In this document: piece by piece, positions 22,022-31,509 of the stretch | Layout of the letters: every line of letters starts with the position of its first letter | How positions within the stretch are numbered: position 1 is the stretch's first letter | Assembly: GCA_038885755.1 (NCBI GenBank) | Contig: JAVZZH010000002.1 | Span: 128,001 to 192,000 of the forward strand | Direction: 5' to 3' | Length of the DNA: 64,000 bases | Source of the DNA: Candidatus Caldarchaeum sp. | Lineage (GTDB): Archaea; Thermoproteota; Nitrososphaeria_A; Caldarchaeales; Caldarchaeaceae | Position numbers and translations under genes: made by a program | Notes under the pieces: model-generated | Seen by the model: only the letters and a program-made list of their open reading frames with translations | Told to the model about the DNA's origin: nothing | Database searches by the model: none

Positions 22022-22489
22022 CTATGAGGTCATCCAAGGGCTTATCTTTTCACCTGTTTTTGCGAGTATTTCGAGAGGTTTTGTTTTGACGCCGCCCATG
22101 CCGGGCGAGCCGGGAGGCATTCCCGGAAGAGCTATGCCGTCTATTGCTGGTTTTTCGATGAAAAGCTTCTTGATTGCCTCCACAGGCACGTGGCCTTCTA
22201 TGAAGTATTGAGCCGCCTGCGCAGTGTGGCAGCTTTGAAGCTCCGCCGGTATTTCGAGCTTCTTCCTGACTCTGTCCAGCTCAAAACTGTCCACCAGAAC
22301 GGTGCGGAAAGCGACGCCCTGTCTTCGGAGGTATGTTTCGTATTCTTTGCAGCATGGGCACTGCTCTGTTCGGTAGATGGTTAACTCGGGTATGGTCTCG
22401 CCTGTTTCGGCTGTGTCCCTCGTCATGGAGCCCTGCAGCAGGACTACCATCGACGCTGCTGCTACTACCAGCAGAATGAAGAAAAGCAT
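22022..22489 (-). CDS. DUF411 (CopG-like) exported metal-binding protein
   Basis: N-terminal TM, CPCC, SCHTA, IEGHVP and GIALPGMPPGSPGM; probable ATG at 22489. Confidence 0.88.
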   Translation of the reverse strand: MLFFILLVVAAASMVVLLQGSMTRDTAETGETIPELTIYRTEQCPCCKEYETYLRRQGVAFRTVLVDSFELDRVRKKLEIPAELQSCHTAQAAQYFIEGHVPVEAIKKLFIEKPAIDGIALPGMPPGSPGMGGVKTKPLEILAKTGEKISPWMTS

Positions 22490-22514
22490 GTTTTTCGTCG
22501 TCTGCTGACGTTTC

Positions 22515-22901
22515 TTAGGATGGTTTCCACGTGAGCGCAAGGACCCCACCCAGTATGGCCAGCAGAGCACCTATTAAAAACCCACCCATTCCAAACAAGC
22601 TGACGGTTGAGGAGGCGAGTATTACTGCTCCCCATGTCTGGGCTTGGTTGGGACGGTTTTGAAGCATCAGTGCGCTGGCTATTACTATGAGTCCTGAGAC
22701 GAGGCCTATCGTCGAGAAGGCTGACCACGCCCATGGCATCATCCAGCCCATCATCCACGGCCCCATTACACCACCCCATCCACCCATCATGCCGCCCCAC
22801 ATCATCCAAACAGCTACGCCGAGCAACCCTCCGGCCAGTATGAACACGCCTCCGACAAGGGATAGGATGATGGCGGCTGTCGGTTTTTCCCCTACCGTCA
22901 A
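22515..22901 (-). CDS. Met/Trp/Gly-rich small membrane protein
   Basis: Four TM segments with the loop MMWGGMMGGWGGVMGPWMMGWMMPW. Confidence 0.7.
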   Translation of the reverse strand: MTVGEKPTAAIILSLVGGVFILAGGLLGVAVWMMWGGMMGGWGGVMGPWMMGWMMPWAWSAFSTIGLVSGLIVIASALMLQNRPNQAQTWGAVILASSTVSLFGMGGFLIGALLAILGGVLALTWKPS

Positions 22902-23630
22902 CTACTCATCCTCCAGTTCTATCTCCTGTATGAACCGGCCATGCCAGCCATGGTACCAGACCATGCCGTTGAACCCGTTTACGCTCAGCATCCCGTGAAT
23001 ACTTCCGTCGAGCCTGTAGTCTATCGTGTAGTAGCCGTAGAAACGGGTTGGATGCTCAACTTCCACGACACCGGTAAACCTGTTCCTGAGATAGTTTAAC
23101 GCTATTTGCTCTGCTTGCTCGCTACTTATGGATAGGTCGGCGGTTGGTGCTGTGTAAGGTCCCGTCATGCGGTGGTGCATGCCGTACTTTGTGTTCCACA
23201 TCATGTTGGGCCCGGGTTCTGGATGTATGGATCCTGTGTACGGGTCGACTAGGAGTTCGAAAGCCCCCACGCCTGTGTCTTGTTCTACTACTACGGCGTA
23301 AAAGTTGTACTGAAACTCCATCACCTCATGCAGCTTAGGGTTTCCTCCAAGCCGTGATACGTAGGTCTGCAGTAAATCGGTGGCCTGTTGTATGGTGAGT
23401 CTTTGTCCCGTGGGCGTCGAAGACCCTCCAATCCAGCTGAAGCATGGACACTGGTTCATCATCCATCCATGCATCCCCATCATGTTGGGGGAAAAGGAGG
23501 GCTGTTGAGGGAACATTCTCCAAGCCGTCTGAACACCCCACCAGTAAGGCTGCAGGAAGGCCGTAGCCAAACCAACGGCTAAGACGGCTGCCGTCAAGGC
23601 TAACAAAACAACAACCACCGTTGTTTTCAC
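22902..23630 (-). CDS. Exported Met/His-rich protein with PepSY-like repeats
   Basis: Signal/TM segment, MMGMHGWMMNQCPC, FELLVDPYTG, PEPGPNMMWNTKYGMHH, SVNG..G and WYHGWHG; GAGGAG-type RBS upstream. Confidence 0.7.
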   Translation of the reverse strand: MKTTVVVVLLALTAAVLAVGLATAFLQPYWWGVQTAWRMFPQQPSFSPNMMGMHGWMMNQCPCFSWIGGSSTPTGQRLTIQQATDLLQTYVSRLGGNPKLHEVMEFQYNFYAVVVEQDTGVGAFELLVDPYTGSIHPEPGPNMMWNTKYGMHHRMTGPYTAPTADLSISSEQAEQIALNYLRNRFTGVVEVEHPTRFYGYYTIDYRLDGSIHGMLSVNGFNGMVWYHGWHGRFIQEIELEDE

Positions 23631-23706: not shown

Positions 23707-24279
23707 TTATTGTTCGACGATTATGCTGCCGTACATTCCCCGGTCTGCATGAGTCTTGGGGAAGGTCAGTTCGAGCTCGGCGCAGACATAGTGGTAGGTT
23801 CCGGGTTTGTCGAATTTTAGGGTGAAGGGTTTTGTCTCCCCGGGCTTTACGTTGACGTCGGCGACAGGTTTCCCGTTAACCGACAGCATGACCGCCGAGG
23901 AATGGTGATGTATCTCCTCGAGCTCTTCAGAGTTGATGATCGACCTTTCATCCATCCCCCTTGCCTGCAGCTCCTCCAGCTTGTCGTGGAACTCCTTCAG
24001 AAAAGCACTCCTATCCTTAACTACCATAAACTCGTGTTCAGCGCCTCCTTTATTCGTGAGCACTATCCTGAGGGGTTCGCCGGTCTTGATGCGTATCGTG
24101 GGCCCTCCAGACACACCGTTGAATCCGAACTCATACGCCTCCAGCTTAACCTCCTTCACACCCGTCGTCGTCATAAGAAAAGCCAACAGCACTCCCGCAA
24201 CTCCTACGAATGCCGCGAAAATTAACAGGGATTTCAGCCGCCCAACCCCAGCAACACCGTTCCTGTCGCGTCTCATCAA
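23707..24279 (-). CDS. Membrane-anchored cupredoxin (CopI-like blue copper protein)
   Basis: N.GGAEHEFMV, His-rich helical insert (EEIHHHSS) and PGTYHYVC...THADRGMYG with H/C/H/M T1 ligands. Confidence 0.85.
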   Translation of the reverse strand: MMRRDRNGVAGVGRLKSLLIFAAFVGVAGVLLAFLMTTTGVKEVKLEAYEFGFNGVSGGPTIRIKTGEPLRIVLTNKGGAEHEFMVVKDRSAFLKEFHDKLEELQARGMDERSIINSEELEEIHHHSSAVMLSVNGKPVADVNVKPGETKPFTLKFDKPGTYHYVCAELELTFPKTHADRGMYGSIIVEQ

Positions 24280-24441: not shown

Positions 24442-25839
24442 GTGGTGGAGTCTGGTTTTGGGCTCGCGCTGGTTTTAGGCGACTTGTGGATAGGTTCTAG
24501 CATGGTTTTGGCGTTCCTTTCCGTGATGCTGTTTGTAAGGAAGTTTGGGTCGAGGCTGGGATTTGGTTTTCTCAGATGGCTGGTTCTGGTTTGTTTGGCC
24601 GGCATATTCGCCAGCATGACCTCCAGCATTCTACTTTGGCTTGAACTTGTTGAACCGGGTGTTCCCTACCTGTATCTAAACCTTGTCTTCCGGATGTTCT
24701 TTTCAATATCCATCGCAGTACTAACTTCGTACATCGCTTACCAGTTCAACAAAGCCTCAATCAAAAACCTGAGACTGTATCTAATCGCTACCGCAGCTCT
24801 GCCGGCAATCACCGTACTATATCACCAGTTTAACCAGCACAAGGCCGTGGCACAACTGTTCACAGCGACGGAAATCCTATTGTTTGGGACCGTTTTCTGG
24901 CTCTTTTTATCATACGCATCAAGCCAAGTTTACTACATCGTAAAAGGTCTGGGCGACGGGTCTAAGTATTTTTTAGTTGCATCTTCTCTTTTCGCAGCCG
25001 TCGTAGCGCCATTTTTCAACTATGTGGTAGGAAATTATCTGTTCGGTGTTATTAGCTTTGAAGAGAATCTTGTTTGGCGTGCTGCCGTGCCGTTTGTCGG
25101 CTCTGTGAGCGCTGTCCTCCTGTTTATCGGGTCATGGTCGATGTGGCAGTTCATCAGACCAATCCACAAAAAATCAGAAACACGAATACTGACCGGTGTC
25201 GAAGGGCTTGACTCCGTTCTAGGCGGAGGAATACCGTACCCGGTTGCCATGCTAATTACAGGACCAGCTGGAGTCGGCAAAACAACTCTTGTAAACATTT
25301 TCGTCAAGACTAGGCTATCTGAGGGCGACACCGTCATAGTCATTTGCTATGACTGCGATGCCCAAACAGTAAGACAACATCTCAGCATTCAAGGTTTAAA
25401 CATCCTAGAGTTGGAAAAGCAGGGCAAACTTGTTCTGGTCGAGACTTTTATACAGTTATCAGGTAAACAACCCACGGAACGATACTCTTCGTCGAGGGAT
25501 TTGGGAGAACTAAGCTTGGTGATAACGAAGGTTCTCGAAGCCACGCCGACTGGTAGAAAATGGCTCGTAATGGATTCCCTGAACGGAATGGCTGAGAGCG
25601 GAGAGGAACGACTGCTGAAATTCGTTAGGATAACACTCGCAAAATGCAGAGCAGCCAACGCTGGAATAGTGGCGACGTTAAACAAGCAAGCTATTCAGCC
25701 AATATATGCAGCCATGCTGGAGGAATTGTTCGAGGGCATCATCGATGTTGAGATAAGGAGCGGAAGAAAAATTGAAAGAAGAGTTAGGGTTGTTAAGATG
25801 CCGTTTCAAGCCGATGTGCATCGATGGATTGATATATAG
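24442..25839 (+). CDS. 7TM membrane domain fused to a KaiC/RAD55-like RecA-superfamily ATPase
   Basis: Seven hydrophobic segments in the first ~240 aa, then TGVEGLDSVLGGGIP, Walker A GPAGVGKT, Walker B LVMDS and RRVRVVKM. Confidence 0.85.
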   Translation: MVESGFGLALVLGDLWIGSSMVLAFLSVMLFVRKFGSRLGFGFLRWLVLVCLAGIFASMTSSILLWLELVEPGVPYLYLNLVFRMFFSISIAVLTSYIAYQFNKASIKNLRLYLIATAALPAITVLYHQFNQHKAVAQLFTATEILLFGTVFWLFLSYASSQVYYIVKGLGDGSKYFLVASSLFAAVVAPFFNYVVGNYLFGVISFEENLVWRAAVPFVGSVSAVLLFIGSWSMWQFIRPIHKKSETRILTGVEGLDSVLGGGIPYPVAMLITGPAGVGKTTLVNIFVKTRLSEGDTVIVICYDCDAQTVRQHLSIQGLNILELEKQGKLVLVETFIQLSGKQPTERYSSSRDLGELSLVITKVLEATPTGRKWLVMDSLNGMAESGEERLLKFVRITLAKCRAANAGIVATLNKQAIQPIYAAMLEELFEGIIDVEIRSGRKIERRVRVVKMPFQADVHRWIDI

Positions 25840-25886
25840 GCGGGTTGGCAAGGTTTAAATCACAAAACACGAACCGTTAAACAGAC

Positions 25887-26342
25887 TTGACCTCTTACAG
25901 GTGGGCAGATTTACTGAAGCCCGTTCCACCCATAATAGGTGTGGTTTTACTCGCCACAGTCATCATCGCTTTCTGGCAGCATGAAGCTTCGATGGATGAC
26001 GTGATGCGGCATATGAATGGGTGGTCGATGCTCACCATGATGTTGTGGATGTATTTGCCGGTTATCGTCGTGTCAATCGCTCTCATCGCCTTCCCGCTAA
26101 TCCTCTACCTCTATCCAACGAGAGTTAGGGCCGAGGTGATGGGTTTGACCGAAGAGGAGAGGAAAGTGGTTGAGTTTCTCGTGGCTAGGGGAGGAGGAGC
26201 TGAGCAGAGGGAGATCGCCAAATCCCTCGGCCTATCCCGTCTCAAAACCCACCGCATAGTATCATCGCTCAAGAGACGTGAAGTCGTGGAGGTCAAGCCC
26301 CGAGGCAGGACAAACATCGTCACGTTGAAAAACATCAACTAG
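25887..26342 (+). CDS. Membrane-anchored winged-helix transcriptional regulator
   Basis: TM1, Met/His loop, TM2, then LTEEERKVVEFL..RGG.AEQREIAKSLGLSRLKTHRIVSSLKRREVVEV.PRGRTN. Confidence 0.82.
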   Translation: MTSYRWADLLKPVPPIIGVVLLATVIIAFWQHEASMDDVMRHMNGWSMLTMMLWMYLPVIVVSIALIAFPLILYLYPTRVRAEVMGLTEEERKVVEFLVARGGGAEQREIAKSLGLSRLKTHRIVSSLKRREVVEVKPRGRTNIVTLKNIN

Positions 26343-27021
26343 TCAAACAACCTCATTAAAGTGAGCGATTCATCGGAAGCATAGCTCCTCTGGAATAACC
26401 AGAAATACCCTCATACCCTTACAGAAATCATTAGATGTTTATAGCTTCTCATGGCCTGATATATAAGCTGGAAAGGGTTAGGTCGTTTAGACATGTCTAT
26501 TGGTTAACGTTATATATAAATGAGGTGGAGACCGGCAAAACCTGAAGCAACACAGTCCAAATGTGTCAGAAAGCATTACCAATTTTCACATTATGAAGGG
26601 AAAAATAGGGGAGGGTTTGGCTGGAGGCCACCAGCAAGAACATCAGAGAACCCCTGAAGAGAGAGGCCGGTACGTTGAACACGGTGTCATATATGGTAGT
26701 GGTAGACTACCATTAGCCTACCATACACGTTATAAACCGTCATACTAGCTTGGGGTTTTTCCCTGCTGTCTAAGCCGGTATGACTTCCAGCCCCTCTCTT
26801 TCGATGGTTCTTTTGTTTTTTGGATTGTTTGTAGCTGGTCTTTGGCTGTTGTTTTTGTTACTCTTTTGGAGATGATGGTAAGCCTCTGGAGCGCTTTGTG
26901 CCGGTCTCCGCTGAATCCCGTTTCATGCTTTTTCCCCTCCTCTTGTCGACTTTATATAGTCCAAGATAGTCTTTGATTTTCCTCATTCCTTTGTTGAAAT
27001 CTACGTATAGCATAATTTCTG

Positions 27022-27525
27022 TCAGAGCCTCTCTTGCAGACAGATAGTTCTGACACGCTGTAGGTAGCTCAGTCTCTCGAGGCTACGAAGAACCCTGCTC
27101 GACTGAGCGTTAGTCACGGTTCTGCCCAACTCGTCCATTGGACTCGTCCTGACCTCACTCCAGCTTTTACCACCGGTAGAGAAGCTTTTGAGGACGGCTA
27201 CGTATAGCTTAGACATGGATTTCAGCTTGAGCAGCTCCTGCCTCACGGTTTCCACGGCTTCGTCGACGATTGTGTTCAAAACTTCCTCACTGATTCTGTT
27301 GACGCTTCTCGTTCTATCAGCTACCTCGGCGCCGTAGAATGTAAGCCAGCCCATCACCCCCGTCGAAAACCTCCAAAGCCTTGTCAACCACCCAACCACC
27401 GACAACGACACCTTCCTGCTTAAAGCCCTCCACGAGAAAGCCTCTTGCCAAATTGTGGGAGAATATCTCGAGCTGGATGACCTTCCTTTATCTTCCGTAG
27501 ACGGATGAGCGCGCGTCGTCTAAGA
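27022..27525 (-). pseudogene. Archaeal ATPase (COG1672/ATPase_2-like), C-terminal remnant
   Basis: Joined reading gives LDDARSSVYGR*RKVIQLEIFS...FLVEGFKQEG...EVFDG/VMGWLTFYG...WSEV. In-frame stop near 27488, frameshift in a G run near 27360, N-terminus absent. Confidence 0.7.
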
Positions 27526-27526
27526 A

Positions 27527-28648
27527 TCATTTAAGCTTATTTTGTTCATGTAATAACTCTTGAATTTTTGTTAGATGAATTGAACCATATTTTTGCACAA
27601 CTTCGTAAAACTGTAGCTCATGTTCGTCAAGGTAAGGTATAATGTTGTGGACTGCCTCTCTATATTTCCTACTTATGTTGTTTATGCTTTCTTCCAACGT
27701 GTTTAACAAAAGGTCAATAGCTCCTCGAATTTGCTCTTCGTTTATAGCAAGAATGCTGGCGATTTGTTCTGCGTGGGCTGTATTGTGAGGAATTATTGGT
27801 TCTAACTCGAATGGGTGGAAAGGCAAAGTGTTTAAATGTTGTGTTTCATATTCCATTCTCTCGATGATTTCTGTGGTGAGTTTCTTGCCGGGCAATTGCC
27901 ATAATAGTGATATGGTTTGATAATAGCACAAAACTAGGTTTATGTAAGCTTCATATAATTGCCCAAGGGTCGTGTTTGATATGATATTTTGTGCTTGTCG
28001 TAATACGTGATAAATAAGTCTCAAATGGTCCCGCAAATAACGAGCGGCTTCAGATTTGACATACTGATTATAGATAATCTCGATTGAACGTTTAACTTCA
28101 TTTATGTAATATTTGTCTGAGTTCCCTAAACGGTATTTTGGTCTCGGGTGTTGGCACTGAAATTCTTCATAGTTTCCAACCCTTAGAGCACTATGTGAAA
28201 GCCCCGCTGAAGTTAAATTGGTAGACCCATAATACTTCCCATAATGGAAAATTCTTTCCGATGAACAAGCATGGTAAAATATAACGAACTTAGCATGGTT
28301 AAGAAACTGCCCACGAGGGTCGAATGCAACCACATAACAGCTACTACGAAGAGAATTAAGGGCACGCTGTTGCAAGCCTCTTACATTGCCCGTAAAGTAG
28401 TTAGGCACGTTCGTTCTTATTAGGCATATTACATTACGGGGTGATAAATGAACAGTGTTTGTAAGTTGGTTTATCAAATTTGTATTGTTATGAACTATTG
28501 ATGGTGAAATAATGAGACTCGATATATAGAAAATTGCAGTGAAATCATGTCTTTCGCTATGACATACATTTATTCTTGTTTCTGCTACATGAAGCATGTT
28601 CCATAAATTTTCCAAAGCGTTATTGCTTTGAGGCTGCTTGATGAGCAT
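27527..28648 (-). CDS. PLD/HKD-superfamily nuclease-like protein, AT-rich
   Basis: HAKF followed by YYGSTNLTSAGL...NYEE, then a helical C-terminus. ATG 28648 lies about 25 nt below a TATATATA box. Composition is clearly more AT-rich than its neighbours. Confidence 0.65.
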   Translation of the reverse strand: MLIKQPQSNNALENLWNMLHVAETRINVCHSERHDFTAIFYISSLIISPSIVHNNTNLINQLTNTVHLSPRNVICLIRTNVPNYFTGNVRGLQQRALNSLRSSCYVVAFDPRGQFLNHAKFVIFYHACSSERIFHYGKYYGSTNLTSAGLSHSALRVGNYEEFQCQHPRPKYRLGNSDKYYINEVKRSIEIIYNQYVKSEAARYLRDHLRLIYHVLRQAQNIISNTTLGQLYEAYINLVLCYYQTISLLWQLPGKKLTTEIIERMEYETQHLNTLPFHPFELEPIIPHNTAHAEQIASILAINEEQIRGAIDLLLNTLEESINNISRKYREAVHNIIPYLDEHELQFYEVVQKYGSIHLTKIQELLHEQNKLK

Positions 28649-28669
28649 GATTGTGACTAACGGAGGAAA

Positions 28670-28683
28670 GTTATATATATAAC
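28670..28683 (-). promoter_or_regulatory. TATA box (GTTATATATATAAC) of the PLD-like gene
   Basis: Spacing to ATG 28648 fits a leaderless archaeal transcript. Confidence 0.5.
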
Positions 28684-28772
28684 ACTTTCTATACGGATTA
28701 AACAGCAGTTTCCATGTCGTTTGTTTCCTAGGAGGCCGTGCCTCCAGCCACCTCATGTGTCTGTGGTGGGTT

Positions 28773-29225
28773 ATGGAGTGTTTTGTTGGGGCTTCAGGCT
28801 GGTTTTATTCGTGGAACCCTGACGGTAGCCTCGACTGGTTTGTCAGAAACCCGGGGCTCAAAGCCGTCGAGCTTAACATGAGTTTCTACCGTTTTCCCTT
28901 CCCAAACATGCTTCGTTCGTGGGTTGTGAAGGTCGGTGGGCTGAGGTAGAGCATTAAGGTGGCCCGGCTGATAACCCACAACTACAAGTTCGGCGAGAAA
29001 GCTGAAAAGCTTTGGGAAAAAATTCAGAAAACTTTTCACACCACTGGTGCAGCAGATAGATTTTTATCTCTTTCAGCTCCCACCCACCATGACGCAAAAA
29101 CACCTACCAGTCATCATAGCTTTCATCGAGAAAAAGGGCTAGGCCGCAGGTTCGCCCTCGGGCCGCGAAACATCAAATGGTTTGACAAAACCGTCGTCGA
29201 GAAAATCGCCATGCATCAGCCTTGA
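28773..29225 (+). pseudogene. DUF72 (YecE-like) pseudogene
   Basis: VGASGWFY.WN, AVELNMSFYRFP, TAG stop, SIKVARLITH, then FQLPP and PRN..WF in shifted frames. Confidence 0.8.
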
Positions 29226-29329
29226 GCTGATAGACACTATCACCTTGGACAGGTGATAGTCGGCTGCAAACCTGAACTTCTGCAACTGCTGCAGAAGTGC
29301 TAAGACGCAACCCACGCCATCTCCTACCG

Positions 29330-30274
29330 TCAAGACTCCGTCATCAAACCGACAATCCTAAGCCAGTCGTCCTCGGTCAGAGTTCCGAACCTTTTCTCGT
29401 AAACAACCTCGCCATCCGTGTTTATGGCGATGATGGTCTCCTGCACGACTACACGAAGCGCAACTATCAGCTCAAGGCTGGGCTGTGAGACTATCCAGTC
29501 TCTCGGCGCGTTGTGTTGTTCGAGGAATCGCTGTATTTTAGCCGGTGTGTCGGCGGGGTCGAAGCCTGTGAGCAGAACCGTGGCCTTGCCGCGGAACCGA
29601 GGATACGCGTTGCCGAGTGTCGTGATGTTGCGGCTGCATGTAGGGCACCATGTTGCAAAGAAGACGAGTAGAACAGGCTTCCCCATCCCCAACACCTGCG
29701 ACACCGATGTAGGCTTTCCGTCGAGAAGCTTCAGCTCGATGCTGAAAGCAGACGAGTACTCGTCAGCGTGTCTATGCACGTCCACTCTTTCGACGGGTTT
29801 CAAGAATGCTTCGACTGCTTTGTCCCATCCGAAAACCTCTCCTCCATGACTCTTCGCAAACTCGATAGCGGAAGTCATAGACTTGAAGGCGATGTAGCCA
29901 TGCCTCATGGGTGTGTTTACGTCCGAGCCTTTGACAAACCATGCGGAGGATGCTTCAACAGCTTGGTCCACGTCGTAGCAGTTTACCAACACCTTCTCAA
30001 CCCTCGCCGCAGGCCACGTACCCTTGACGGGTTCGATCCTCCCTGTGAAGGAAAGGTAGTGTATAAGCATGCAGCCGACGTCGTCGTAGAAAAGCTGTTT
30101 ACCGTCCACGGTTAGTTGGGCCGCGAACTGTGTTCGCTCGATTTTCATGCCGCAGTAGCTGCATACACGAGCGTCAAGCCAAGGCGGCGTTCGTGGCAGC
30201 GATGTGTAGACGATGTAGGCGGCTCCTGCCGCTGCAGTGGCCAGCGCCGTGGATAGGAGGAGCCGTCTCTTCAT
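29330..30274 (-). CDS. NosL-like copper chaperone fused to a TlpA-like thioredoxin domain
   Basis: Twin-Arg-like N-terminus MKRRLLL; CSYCGM, FYDDVGCM, GSDV.TPM..GYIAF and A.EFAK.HGG; then FFATWCPTC. Confidence 0.82.
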   Translation of the reverse strand: MKRRLLLSTALATAAAGAAYIVYTSLPRTPPWLDARVCSYCGMKIERTQFAAQLTVDGKQLFYDDVGCMLIHYLSFTGRIEPVKGTWPAARVEKVLVNCYDVDQAVEASSAWFVKGSDVNTPMRHGYIAFKSMTSAIEFAKSHGGEVFGWDKAVEAFLKPVERVDVHRHADEYSSAFSIELKLLDGKPTSVSQVLGMGKPVLLVFFATWCPTCSRNITTLGNAYPRFRGKATVLLTGFDPADTPAKIQRFLEQHNAPRDWIVSQPSLELIVALRVVVQETIIAINTDGEVVYEKRFGTLTEDDWLRIVGLMTES

Positions 30275-30493
30275 GGCTGGACTAACCGTGTGGACCTACG
30301 CGTCTTCTTATAACCATTCCACCGCTCCACACCTCTTTACGACGGCTCTCTCCGGCTGAAAGACCACGCTCTGGTTTAGTGTCGTGGCCACCGATGTTGT
30401 TCCAACGGTTTTCTCGGAGCGTCGAGCTGGAAAGATGAAAAACTTAGGCGCTGAAGCCGCAACCGCTGGCAGGCCGGCGACAAGCTTTCTCAA
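30275..30493 (-). pseudogene. Remnant of a plastocyanin-like cupredoxin
   Basis: One frame reads VVFQPERAVVKRCGAVEWL*EDA*VHTVS, matching the cupredoxin F.P....V..G..V.W.N.D...HTV pattern. Two stops and no C-terminal Cys loop. Confidence 0.55.
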
Positions 30494-30495
30494 GG

Positions 30496-31509
30496 CTATT
30501 CGAGGATAAACAGCCCTATCATGCCGGCGTCGGCGTGGCTGACGACGTGGCAGTGGAAGAGGTAGACTCCTGGCTGGTTGAGGACGTAGATTATGGTGTC
30601 GGCTGCGCCGGGAACGAGTGGAACTATTTGTGCGGGCCAGCTTCTTCCGCCGAGGACGTATTGGCTTCGGAGGTCTCCGACGTGAGCGTGGAAGCTGTGG
30701 TAGAGGTCTCCGATGTTTATGATGTGCAGCCTTATTCTTTCGCCTGCTTTCGCCTTGAAGACCGGCATGGATGTGTTGAACAGCTGCGACACGCCCTGCA
30801 GTCCTTTCAACTGTGGAAAGATCTTGCTCTGGCCTAGAAACACCAGCTCGAGCTCGTGCTCGCCGCCGGGAACACCCATGCCGTTCATGATGTAGAACGG
30901 CCGCTGGCCTGTACCTTCGATCGCACCCTTAACAGCAGGCGTCTCCGCCATAAAGATTACGAAGTTGCGGGACGGAGGCTCGTCGATTTCATCGACTATG
31001 ATGGCGCCGTAAAGCCCCATCAGCATGTGGTCAACTATTCTCAAACCGCCGTCGGCTGAGTGGCAGTGGTAATACCATATTCCAGGTTTAGAGGCGGGCC
31101 ATTCGTAGACCCATTCCCCGCCTGGCGGAATCATCGACCCGGCTCCGACGCCTGTGAGGATGTTGACCTGGCTGCCGTCGTGCTTAAGGTCGTAGTATGG
31201 GAGGTGTGGGTGGAGGCTGTGGGTCAGGTTGAGCTTGTTGATGGCCCTAATCCGGATGAGGTCGCCGACTTTGGCGTAGAGTGTAGGGCCTGGAATCGTT
31301 CCGTTATAAGTCCATGCGTTCCAGAAAACTCCCGGAGCTATCTCGATCCTCGCAGGCTCTATGAAGATCGTGTACTCGTGTACGTTGGCTTGCTGAGCTC
31401 TAGCTCCGAACAGGTTTGGGAAAACAGTCGGCGTCCAGAAAATAGCTGTGGCGTATCCTAGCAGGAATCCTGCGGATATCAGTCCAGCTAGAATGTAAGC
31501 GGTCTTCAT
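30496..31509 (-). CDS. Two-domain multicopper oxidase
   Basis: N-terminal TM, YNGTIPGPTL, HSLHPH, WYYHCH...DHMLMGLYG, HSFHAH and YLFHCHVVSHADAGM. Confidence 0.9.
   Translation of the reverse strand: MKTAYILAGLISAGFLLGYATAIFWTPTVFPNLFGARAQQANVHEYTIFIEPARIEIAPGVFWNAWTYNGTIPGPTLYAKVGDLIRIRAINKLNLTHSLHPHLPYYDLKHDGSQVNILTGVGAGSMIPPGGEWVYEWPASKPGIWYYHCHSADGGLRIVDHMLMGLYGAIIVDEIDEPPSRNFVIFMAETPAVKGAIEGTGQRPFYIMNGMGVPGGEHELELVFLGQSKIFPQLKGLQGVSQLFNTSMPVFKAKAGERIRLHIINIGDLYHSFHAHVGDLRSQYVLGGRSWPAQIVPLVPGAADTIIYVLNQPGVYLFHCHVVSHADAGMIGLFILE

Follow-up and report, generated by a model that had tools for sequence, protein, structure and literature searches.

A seven-helix membrane domain of a lineage-restricted family fused to a KaiC-like domain, at a copper gene cluster of Candidatus Caldarchaeum

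The TM-KaiC gene and its KaiC-like domain

The stretch of DNA analysed here (64,000 nucleotides from a Candidatus Caldarchaeum sp., positions 128,001 to 192,000 of contig JAVZZH010000002.1 in assembly GCA_038885755.1; hereafter the window) carries at positions 24442..25839 of the plus strand a gene that encodes a membrane-bound relative of KaiC, which we call TM-KaiC. In the list of open reading frames (ORFs), the gene has a GTG start and a TAG stop and encodes 465 amino acids. It is transcribed divergently from a cupredoxin gene and lies directly ahead of a gene encoding a membrane protein with a winged helix-turn-helix (wHTH) domain, 47 nucleotides away. Both features of the gene order had been noted in an earlier reading of the letters alone (the sequence-only reading), and the ORF list confirmed them. 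Judged by its gene content, the locus is a copper gene cluster. A 466-amino-acid protein from a Candidatus Caldarchaeum metagenome-assembled genome (P0001) is 86% identical to TM-KaiC over the full length and has identical N-terminal residues; its annotation consists only of "RAD55 family ATPase".

The AlphaFold2 (AF2) model of full-length TM-KaiC, with a predicted local distance difference test score (pLDDT) of 82.4, shows seven long helices and, after them, an alpha/beta domain of the RecA type. The transmembrane (TM) helices make up residues 1-238 (24442..25155, plus strand) and the single KaiC/RecA-like domain residues 251-465 (25192..25836, plus strand). The two are joined by a basic linker (residues 239-250; 25156..25191, plus strand) that was modelled with low confidence, the pLDDT being below 50 at residues 240-245. 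The Pfam family KaiC (PF06745) matched residues 251-453 with an E-value of 7.8e-24 and 84.8 bits, compared to a cut-off of 26.6. When the AF2 model of this domain was searched against the PDB with Foldseek, KaiC (7s65) was found at an E-value of 1.3e-10, and TMt values of 0.82, 0.79, 0.79 and 0.73 were obtained for PH0284 (2dr3), PH0186, SSO2452 and FlaH (4yds), respectively.

The motifs of the domain were mapped by pairwise and profile alignments to solved KaiC chains. Walker A (GPAGVGKT, residues 274-281; 25261..25284, plus strand) and Walker B (VMDS, residues 376-379, or LVMDS at 375-379; 25567..25578, plus strand) are both intact. The sequence YDCD (residues 303-306; 25348..25359, plus strand) aligns with F-E-E-S of the CI domain of KaiC and Y-E-E-S of CII. 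An active KaiC ATPase or kinase has a catalytic Glu pair at this site (E77/E78 in CI, E318/E319 in CII); TM-KaiC has Asp304 at the catalytic Glu position (E318 in CII) and Cys305 at that of the second Glu (E319). The Arg of the K-x-R-G motif, likewise expected of an active enzyme, acts in trans as an arginine finger. In TM-KaiC the motif reads KMPF (residues 452-455; 25795..25806, plus strand), with Pro454 at the position of the Arg in K-M-R-G of KaiC (R459 in CII). Finally, in LEELFEG (residues 426-432; 25717..25737, plus strand), Glu427 and Glu428 occupy the positions of the KaiC phosphosites S431 and T432. KaiC CI carries E-E at the same two positions, and the domain is therefore best described as CI-like in this region rather than as a mimic of phosphorylated CII. 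The sequence-only reading had proposed seven TM segments joined to a KaiC-like domain with intact Walker motifs, and the AF2 model, the Pfam match and the alignments all agree with it. Its three further observations, namely that the EE motif appears as YDCD and KMRG as KMPF, and that LEELFE has no Ser or Thr at the phosphosite, were each reproduced in the KaiC alignment.

The same substitutions were then considered over the whole family. The P-loop Lys is present in all eight distinct sequences of one clade (clade I, see below) and is replaced by Arg in all ten distinct sequences of the other (clade II). At the catalytic Glu position, 11 of 13 distinct sequences carry Asp, one Glu and one His. 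Walker B is Asp-Ser in ten of 12 distinct sequences and Glu-Ser in two, and at the position of the K-M-R-G Arg 12 distinct sequences show Pro (five), Glu (three), Arg (two), Lys (one) or Ala (one). A Ser or Thr at the clock phosphosite positions was found in none of 12 distinct family sequences. As read from these motifs, the family appears to have kept the nucleotide pocket while its hydrolysis apparatus is eroded. Relatives with no more than 23-36% identity to TM-KaiC show the same architecture and the same pattern of motifs, so that the observation is not due to chance.

The G+C content at third codon positions (GC3) is 0.506 in TM-KaiC versus 0.60-0.68 in the adjacent genes. The low value was considered as a sign of recent transfer and rejected as such, because TM-KaiC genes of other genomes fall below their own neighbours to the same degree; GC3 was below that of the neighbours in every family member checked. 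A scan for sigma-70 promoters and terminators, which is ill-suited to archaea, gave sites no more numerous than in shuffled sequence.

The membrane domain and the extent of the family

An AF2 model of the membrane domain alone reached a pLDDT of 84.7 and a predicted TM-score (pTM) of 0.83. The helices of TM-KaiC in the AF2 model span residues 2-38, 41-66, 74-101, 107-130, 139-170, 175-200 and 206-238. Lys and Arg residues number 11 on the predicted cytoplasmic loops and one on the outer loops, and the domain is therefore predicted to be N-out/C-in. The outer loops are merely 5-9 residues long.

We did not find a known family for this domain. The first 250 residues gave no Pfam match above threshold, and neither the 7-TM sensor families HisKA_7TM and 7TMR-DISM nor rhodopsins were matched in Pfam at E ≤ 0.01. 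DUF7103 was tried as a candidate family and rejected: its scores of 16.4-19 bits fall short of the cut-off of 27, and none of the 14 control genomes contained it. Foldseek returned nothing from the PDB at E ≤ 0.001 (best E-value 0.02), a result that does not prove a new fold. Microbial rhodopsins and a designed fold of the GPCR type ranked first, at TM-scores of 0.45-0.54 and an rmsd of about 7 Å. The all-against-all aligner VIA gave Z-scores of at most 9.5 to assorted helical bundles, and the chance level for such models is about 13. A retinal-binding Lys is missing from TM7 (residues 206-238). Protein Atlas gave matches at the 0.90 level to archaeal clusters of about 240 amino acids and, at 0.87, to a cluster in which 10% of the members carry HisKA_7TM; both are leads only. 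The domain had been called receptor-like, which is justified by its topology of seven helices with an outer N-terminus and an inner C-terminus, and not as a family assignment, since no sensor family or fold was matched.

Conservation within the membrane domain was read from an alignment of the window protein with 15 further rows (12 profile matches and three locus-derived sequences). Conserved residues lie in TM5 and TM6 (Gly149, Phe152, Trp153, Tyr158, Tyr194, Tyr199-Leu200 and Gly202) and in the cytoplasmic loop between them (Gly171). Over the 16 aligned rows Tyr158 is the sole invariant residue of the membrane domain, and Gly149, Leu200 and Gly202 are nearly invariant. An invariant charged residue within the membrane was not observed in the aligned family.

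Searching 1.84 billion representative proteins with a profile built from only the membrane domain gave 16 matches at E ≤ 0.001, 13 of them at E ≤ 1e-10. In each of the 11 distinct relatives of sufficient length (344-468 amino acids), the TM domain is followed by a KaiC-like domain, and the membrane domain is thus known only in this fusion. P0043, P0045 and P0047 are truncated or frameshifted and too short for their architecture to be judged. With the TM-only profile, TM-KaiC was found in nine of 76 genomes of the order, all within one family (f1). A deeper TM-only profile, applied to 401 genomes from across the phylum, detected it in 11; 10 of 16 genomes in f1 had it, compared to 0 of 384 elsewhere. 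The TM-KaiC family does not extend beyond this family of archaea, which is a Caldarchaeum relative. In a maximum-likelihood tree of 18 sequences, two deep clades (support 100/99) with long branches were resolved. Clade I, with Lys in the P-loop, includes the window protein, and clade II comprises the proteins with Arg. Sub-types within one genus are 26-31% identical to each other, versus 85-97% for neighbouring genes. Genome G000 (1.33 Mb, 86.5% complete) contains eight KaiC-family matches in total; three of these are ORFs of 325-356 amino acids with partial profile coverage, which may carry further unusual domains.

Gene neighbourhoods in the copper cluster and elsewhere

The gene downstream of TM-KaiC (25887..26342, plus strand) encodes a protein of 151 amino acids with two TM segments and a wHTH domain assigned to DUF7343/TrmB by Pfam. 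It is present in 17 of the 18 genomes of the family. In six of them (G003, G005, G009, G011, G012 and G014) it lies in the copper cluster without an adjacent TM-KaiC gene. The arrangement in G003, G005, G009, G012 and G014 consists of the genes for a DUF411, a DUF6114 and a PepSY-like protein transcribed divergently from the wHTH gene, with NosL-thioredoxin and oxidase genes nearby, and in these five genomes neither TM-KaiC nor the cupredoxin gene was found between PepSY and wHTH. Both genes occur at this position only in G000, G002 and G004. The tandem order TM-KaiC/wHTH is kept in G002; the contig of G004 ends within TM-KaiC, which leaves its wHTH linkage out of view. The sequence-only reading had paired TM-KaiC with the wHTH protein as a dedicated signalling system free of a histidine kinase and had expected a conserved linkage to the wHTH and copper genes. 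The pairing is not supported: 17 of 18 genomes possess the wHTH gene, which clusters with copper genes regardless of TM-KaiC, and the linkage is absent in every member outside the lineage of G000, G002 and G004. From the compared gene orders, TM-KaiC is a rare accessory gene inserted in the copper cluster and not a fixed partner of the neighbouring regulator.

The outer loop of the wHTH protein contains, in seven orthologues, the invariant residues W30-Q31-H32, M36, M40, M43, M51, M52 and W54. Because this loop is rich in Met and His, the protein is a plausible copper sensor by itself. We regard it as a candidate one-component transmembrane copper sensor-regulator and, on the present comparison of genomes, as the conserved core of the copper cluster; a limited literature search turned up no archaeal regulator of that kind. 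A TATA-like TTTAAA lies in the 47-nucleotide gap in front of its start, and the gene could therefore be transcribed from a promoter of its own. RNA-library contigs from two libraries of one study, derived from a strain about 92% identical, run across the junction from the stop of TM-KaiC to the start of the wHTH gene (a contig of 1500 nucleotides covering 25136-26334 and one of 283 nucleotides covering 25787-26065). Assembled contigs only were used, and the absence of RNA contigs over 24442-25064 in X8 and X9 has no meaning. When TM-KaiC was co-folded with the wHTH protein (alignments A3 and A5), the score was 0.00 against a mark of 0.32, a result that is neutral on binding.

On the other side of TM-KaiC, the cupredoxin gene (23707..24279, minus strand; 190 amino acids) is the second gene of the lineage-specific insertion. 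Among its Pfam and NCBIfam matches, only Cu-oxidase_3 lies above the curated cut-off. It is intact in the window and split over two frames in G002 and G004 (L012 9110-9479 and L002 1296-1662, respectively), and the DNA runs X1 and X5 contain a variant in which 130 nucleotides (23816-23945) are replaced by 35. Beyond it, the three co-oriented genes for DUF411 (with glutaredoxin), DUF6114 and the PepSY-like protein (22022..23630, minus strand), which were identified by Pfam, stay together throughout the family and are syntenic in G003, G005, G009, G012 and G014, probably form an operon for copper handling on the periplasmic side. The DUF411 protein has a glutaredoxin-like N-terminus, the DUF6114 membrane protein consists mostly of Met/Gly/Trp repeats, and the PepSY-like protein has Met/His-rich stretches.

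Further downstream, Pfam identified a NosL-thioredoxin fusion and a two-domain multicopper oxidase (29330..31509, minus strand). The NosL-thioredoxin gene lies at most 1.2 kb from the wHTH gene in G002, G003, G005, G006, G007, G009, G011 and G012. In the window an insertion of about 3 kb (26343..29329), absent from G002, separates the two. It contains orf129 (27022-27411), which has a weak match to an MCM_C-type wHTH, and orf409 (27527-28756; GC 0.374), for which neither Pfam nor PADLOC gave a family. At 26334, DNA and RNA-library contigs of a related strain part from the window sequence. Between the wHTH and NosL-thioredoxin genes, G003 (L056 6684-7422) and G005 (L059 2450-3188) carry a pair of HEPN and nucleotidyltransferase genes.

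Away from the copper cluster, TM-KaiC members were found in G005, G007, G008, G009, G012, G014 and G017. In G008 (L024), G009 (L025 7529-10234) and G012 (L026), a clade II gene forms an operon with genes for a QueT-family membrane protein and a full-length TrmB regulator, in the order TM-KaiC-QueT-TrmB (type B), with a 33-nucleotide gap followed by a 41-nucleotide overlap. A HEPN/nucleotidyltransferase pair lies upstream of this operon in G009, and a nucleotidyltransferase gene is also found upstream in G012. In type C (G005, G007 and, in fragmented form, G003), TM-KaiC is placed between the genes for a beta-CASP nuclease and a 448-amino-acid protein. The G014 member (C11) adjoins MarC, with a gene for the copper chaperone PpoB2 about 1 kb away. 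Of the two copies in G017, one adjoins UbiD and the other lies at a contig end. A TrmB-family wHTH gene is located just downstream and on the same strand in two of the five assessable independent contexts, namely the window lineage and type B. Genomes with such an adjacency have only 9-12 TrmB-family matches each. A TrmB-type regulator is our best lead for what TM-KaiC might control.

Possible roles of TM-KaiC

TM-KaiC shares with cyanobacterial KaiC the fold and the P-loop core (the CII profile matched residues 240-459 with E-values of about 1e-22 to 1e-29), and its Glu427/428 pair equals the E-E pair of CI. It differs in having a single instead of a double domain and in lacking the S431/T432 sites, the catalytic Glu pair and the Arg of K-M-R-G. 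In NCBIfam all matches of TM-KaiC were below threshold and fell to KaiC, archaeal KaiC-like groups and ArlH. The scores for circadian KaiC were 54.7 against a cut-off of 408 (NF006799) and 39.1 against 546 (TIGR02655), and neither kaiA nor kaiB was found among the neighbours scanned. For ArlH/FlaH, the score was 33.1 bits against 215 (NF052589), and no archaellum genes were found among these neighbours.

ArlH nevertheless offers the closest functional model that we considered for a domain of this kind. It likewise consists of a single KaiC/RecA-like domain (4yds, TMt 0.73) with Walker A and a RecA-type Walker B (Asp-Ser/Thr). According to 10.1101/2021.03.19.436134, ArlH is an ATP-binding protein for which standard assays detect no ATPase activity and whose interaction with its partner depends on nucleotide; in Euryarchaeota it naturally carries Gln at the catalytic Glu position. 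In contrast to TM-KaiC, whose domain is fused to seven TM helices, ArlH is soluble and works with ArlI and ArlJ; it also autophosphorylates, while TM-KaiC has Glu-Glu at the clock-site positions. Inactivated KaiC-like domains (iKaiC/MEDS) and fusions of KaiC with signalling domains that are restricted to narrow lineages, such as KaiC-REC and HalOD1-iKaiC, are described in PMC5847659. TM-KaiC resembles those reported there in being a narrow-range fusion of a divergent KaiC-like domain with impaired catalytic residues, and differs in being joined to a polytopic 7-TM domain without a known family instead of a soluble signalling domain. MEDS itself (PF14417) was absent from the 13 Pfam families that reached E ≤ 0.01. 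Our literature search found no membrane-bound or 7-TM-fused KaiC; the survey by Makarova et al. 2017 lay outside this search.

Two further comparisons concern input and output. Like the HisKA_7TM and 7TMR-DISM sensor modules and the rhodopsins, TM-KaiC has seven helices in an N-out/C-in orientation with a cytoplasmic output domain after TM7; unlike them, it has no corresponding Pfam match, no Lys in TM7 and short outer loops. GvpD is a soluble KaiC-like protein of haloarchaea that acts on the gas-vesicle activator GvpE. It is thus a P-loop protein of the KaiC family that acts on a transcription factor and is not a motor, which is the kind of output proposed here for TM-KaiC.

We suggest, with a probability of roughly 0.5, that TM-KaiC is a membrane-embedded, ATP-binding KaiC-type switch that hydrolyses ATP slowly or not at all. 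The seven-helix domain would hold the single CI-like domain at the cytoplasmic face of the membrane, where the latter may bind ATP with slow or no hydrolysis, by analogy with ArlH. The membrane domain would influence the nucleotide and oligomeric state, which in turn would control the binding of a cytoplasmic partner. This partner is possibly a TrmB-type wHTH regulator, the membrane-tethered wHTH protein at the window locus and the co-operonic TrmB protein in type B. The RecA mutants E96D and K72R, in which the changes are of the same kinds as the substitutions in this family, are classical examples of proteins that bind ATP and barely hydrolyse it. From the sequence-only reading, this interpretation keeps nucleotide binding with poor or no hydrolysis, supported by Asp304, the mostly lost Arg and the P-loop Arg of clade II, and gives up the dedicated pair with the wHTH protein. 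At the copper locus TM-KaiC would be an accessory input at most, with the Met/His-rich membrane wHTH protein presumably acting as the regulon's own sensor-regulator.

Several observations weigh against this interpretation. Hydrolysis could still be possible with an Asp in place of the catalytic Glu, and the membrane domain has no recognisable ligand site and could therefore be a mere anchor. The gene is dispensable, as no copy of it was found in three genomes of 93-95% completeness (G011, G013 and G016), and the copies of G002 and G003 look broken. In addition, no wHTH gene is located nearby in three of the five assessable contexts (G017:C14, G014:C11 and type C). At the PepSY/wHTH site of G011 (L054 5079-9312), the place of the cupredoxin and TM-KaiC genes is taken by an unrelated set encoding an alcohol dehydrogenase, CbiQ and a double ABC ATPase in fused form, and the adjacency of TM-KaiC and the wHTH gene may thus be accidental. 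The RNA-library contigs cannot prove a single transcript, as carry-over of DNA is possible. As to the details of these loci, the G002 copy (L012 9690-11095) consists of a TM ORF and a KaiC ORF split at an A-run in the linker, which may be real or an assembly error, and the G003 copy (L073 1888-3217) is in three or more pieces. The G011 cassette reads as a transporter module of the energy-coupling factor (ECF) type, and the site as a hot spot for accessory cassettes.

The alternatives differ in which of these observations they explain. The main one is that TM-KaiC is a fast-evolving accessory or conflict membrane NTPase, abortive-infection-like or of another defence type, that is unrelated to copper or transcription factors. 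It would account for the single copy per genome, found at five or more different locations, the long branches and low identity between sub-types (26-31% versus 85-97% for neighbours), the low GC3 in every member checked and the broken copies, and it fits the nearby HEPN-nucleotidyltransferase pairs, LAGLIDADG gene and low-GC insertion. PADLOC also gave weak mad8 matches of 20-32 bits. These matches (20.8 bits for TM-KaiC of the window, no more than 32.3 bits for its relatives) are confined to the P-loop/RecA core, however, and no other MADS component, nor any PADLOC match, was present among the neighbours scanned. Since TM-KaiC also lacks a nuclease or other effector domain, and its neighbours vary by context without a visible conserved system, we consider this explanation unlikely. 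We judge it about as improbable that TM-KaiC is a dedicated sensor partner, relaying a copper-related membrane signal to the downstream wHTH protein without a histidine kinase. The two genes share a strand and a 47-nucleotide gap, their tandem is kept in G002, RNA-library contigs cross the junction, the locus is dense in copper genes, and PpoB2 lies about 1 kb from the G014 member. On the other hand, 17 of 18 genomes carry the wHTH gene, six of them in a copper cluster that lacks an adjacent TM-KaiC, and G009, G012, G005 and G014 hold TM-KaiC at another locus. Moreover, the wHTH protein could sense copper alone through its Met/His-rich loop and be expressed from TTTAAA as its own promoter, and the PepSY/wHTH site accepts other cassettes.

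An active membrane-anchored hexameric motor of the RecA type, working as a translocase or energising a partner such as the QueT-family protein, seems still less probable. RecA-fold hexamers anchored by N-terminal TM segments do exist, among them coupling proteins and FtsK, the P-loop and Walker B of the window protein are intact, and QueT is encoded directly downstream in G008, G009 and G012. However, the KaiC Arg position is lost in nine of 12 distinct sequences and the catalytic Glu kept in one of 13, Arg takes the place of the P-loop Lys throughout the very clade that carries QueT, and the TM domain matches no transporter fold. That the gene is a decaying remnant without function in this genome is the most improbable of these explanations. 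It would agree with the broken copies in G002 and G003, the disrupted cupredoxin genes of G002 and G004, and the failure to find the gene in several well-assembled genomes; yet the window copy is a full, uninterrupted ORF covered by RNA-library contigs, the motifs and architecture are kept at 23-36% identity, and the AF2 models are confident. A bolder form of the switch that we favour, which we hold to be speculative, is a new class of one-protein receptor in which the 7-TM domain is the sensor and directly sets the nucleotide and oligomeric state of a hydrolysis-dead KaiC-like domain, so that TrmB-type regulators would be captured at or released from the membrane. The regulator would be the Met/His-rich wHTH protein at the window locus and the co-operonic TrmB protein in sister genomes.

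KaiC-like ATPases have been proposed as signalling hubs of archaea (Makarova, Galperin and Koonin 2017, as cited in PMC5847659). They have also been put forward as the archaeal counterpart of two-component signalling, a network in which the entry of signals is largely unexplained. KaiC-like signalling domains as such are known, and it is the predicted fusion to a 7-TM domain of a new, lineage-restricted family that is the novel part. Its importance is tempered by the very narrow family (16 representatives in 1.84 billion proteins), by the dispensability of the gene and by the comparative genomics, which removes the link to the neighbouring regulator. The conserved membrane wHTH protein, as a candidate copper sensor-regulator, is a side result that is maybe equally useful. 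With a membrane fusion and natural substitutions of the catalytic Glu and the P-loop Lys, TM-KaiC would offer a straightforward test of the idea that KaiC acts as a nucleotide switch, and if the one-protein receptor were to prove true, it would represent the first direct receptor input into the proposed archaeal KaiC signalling hub.

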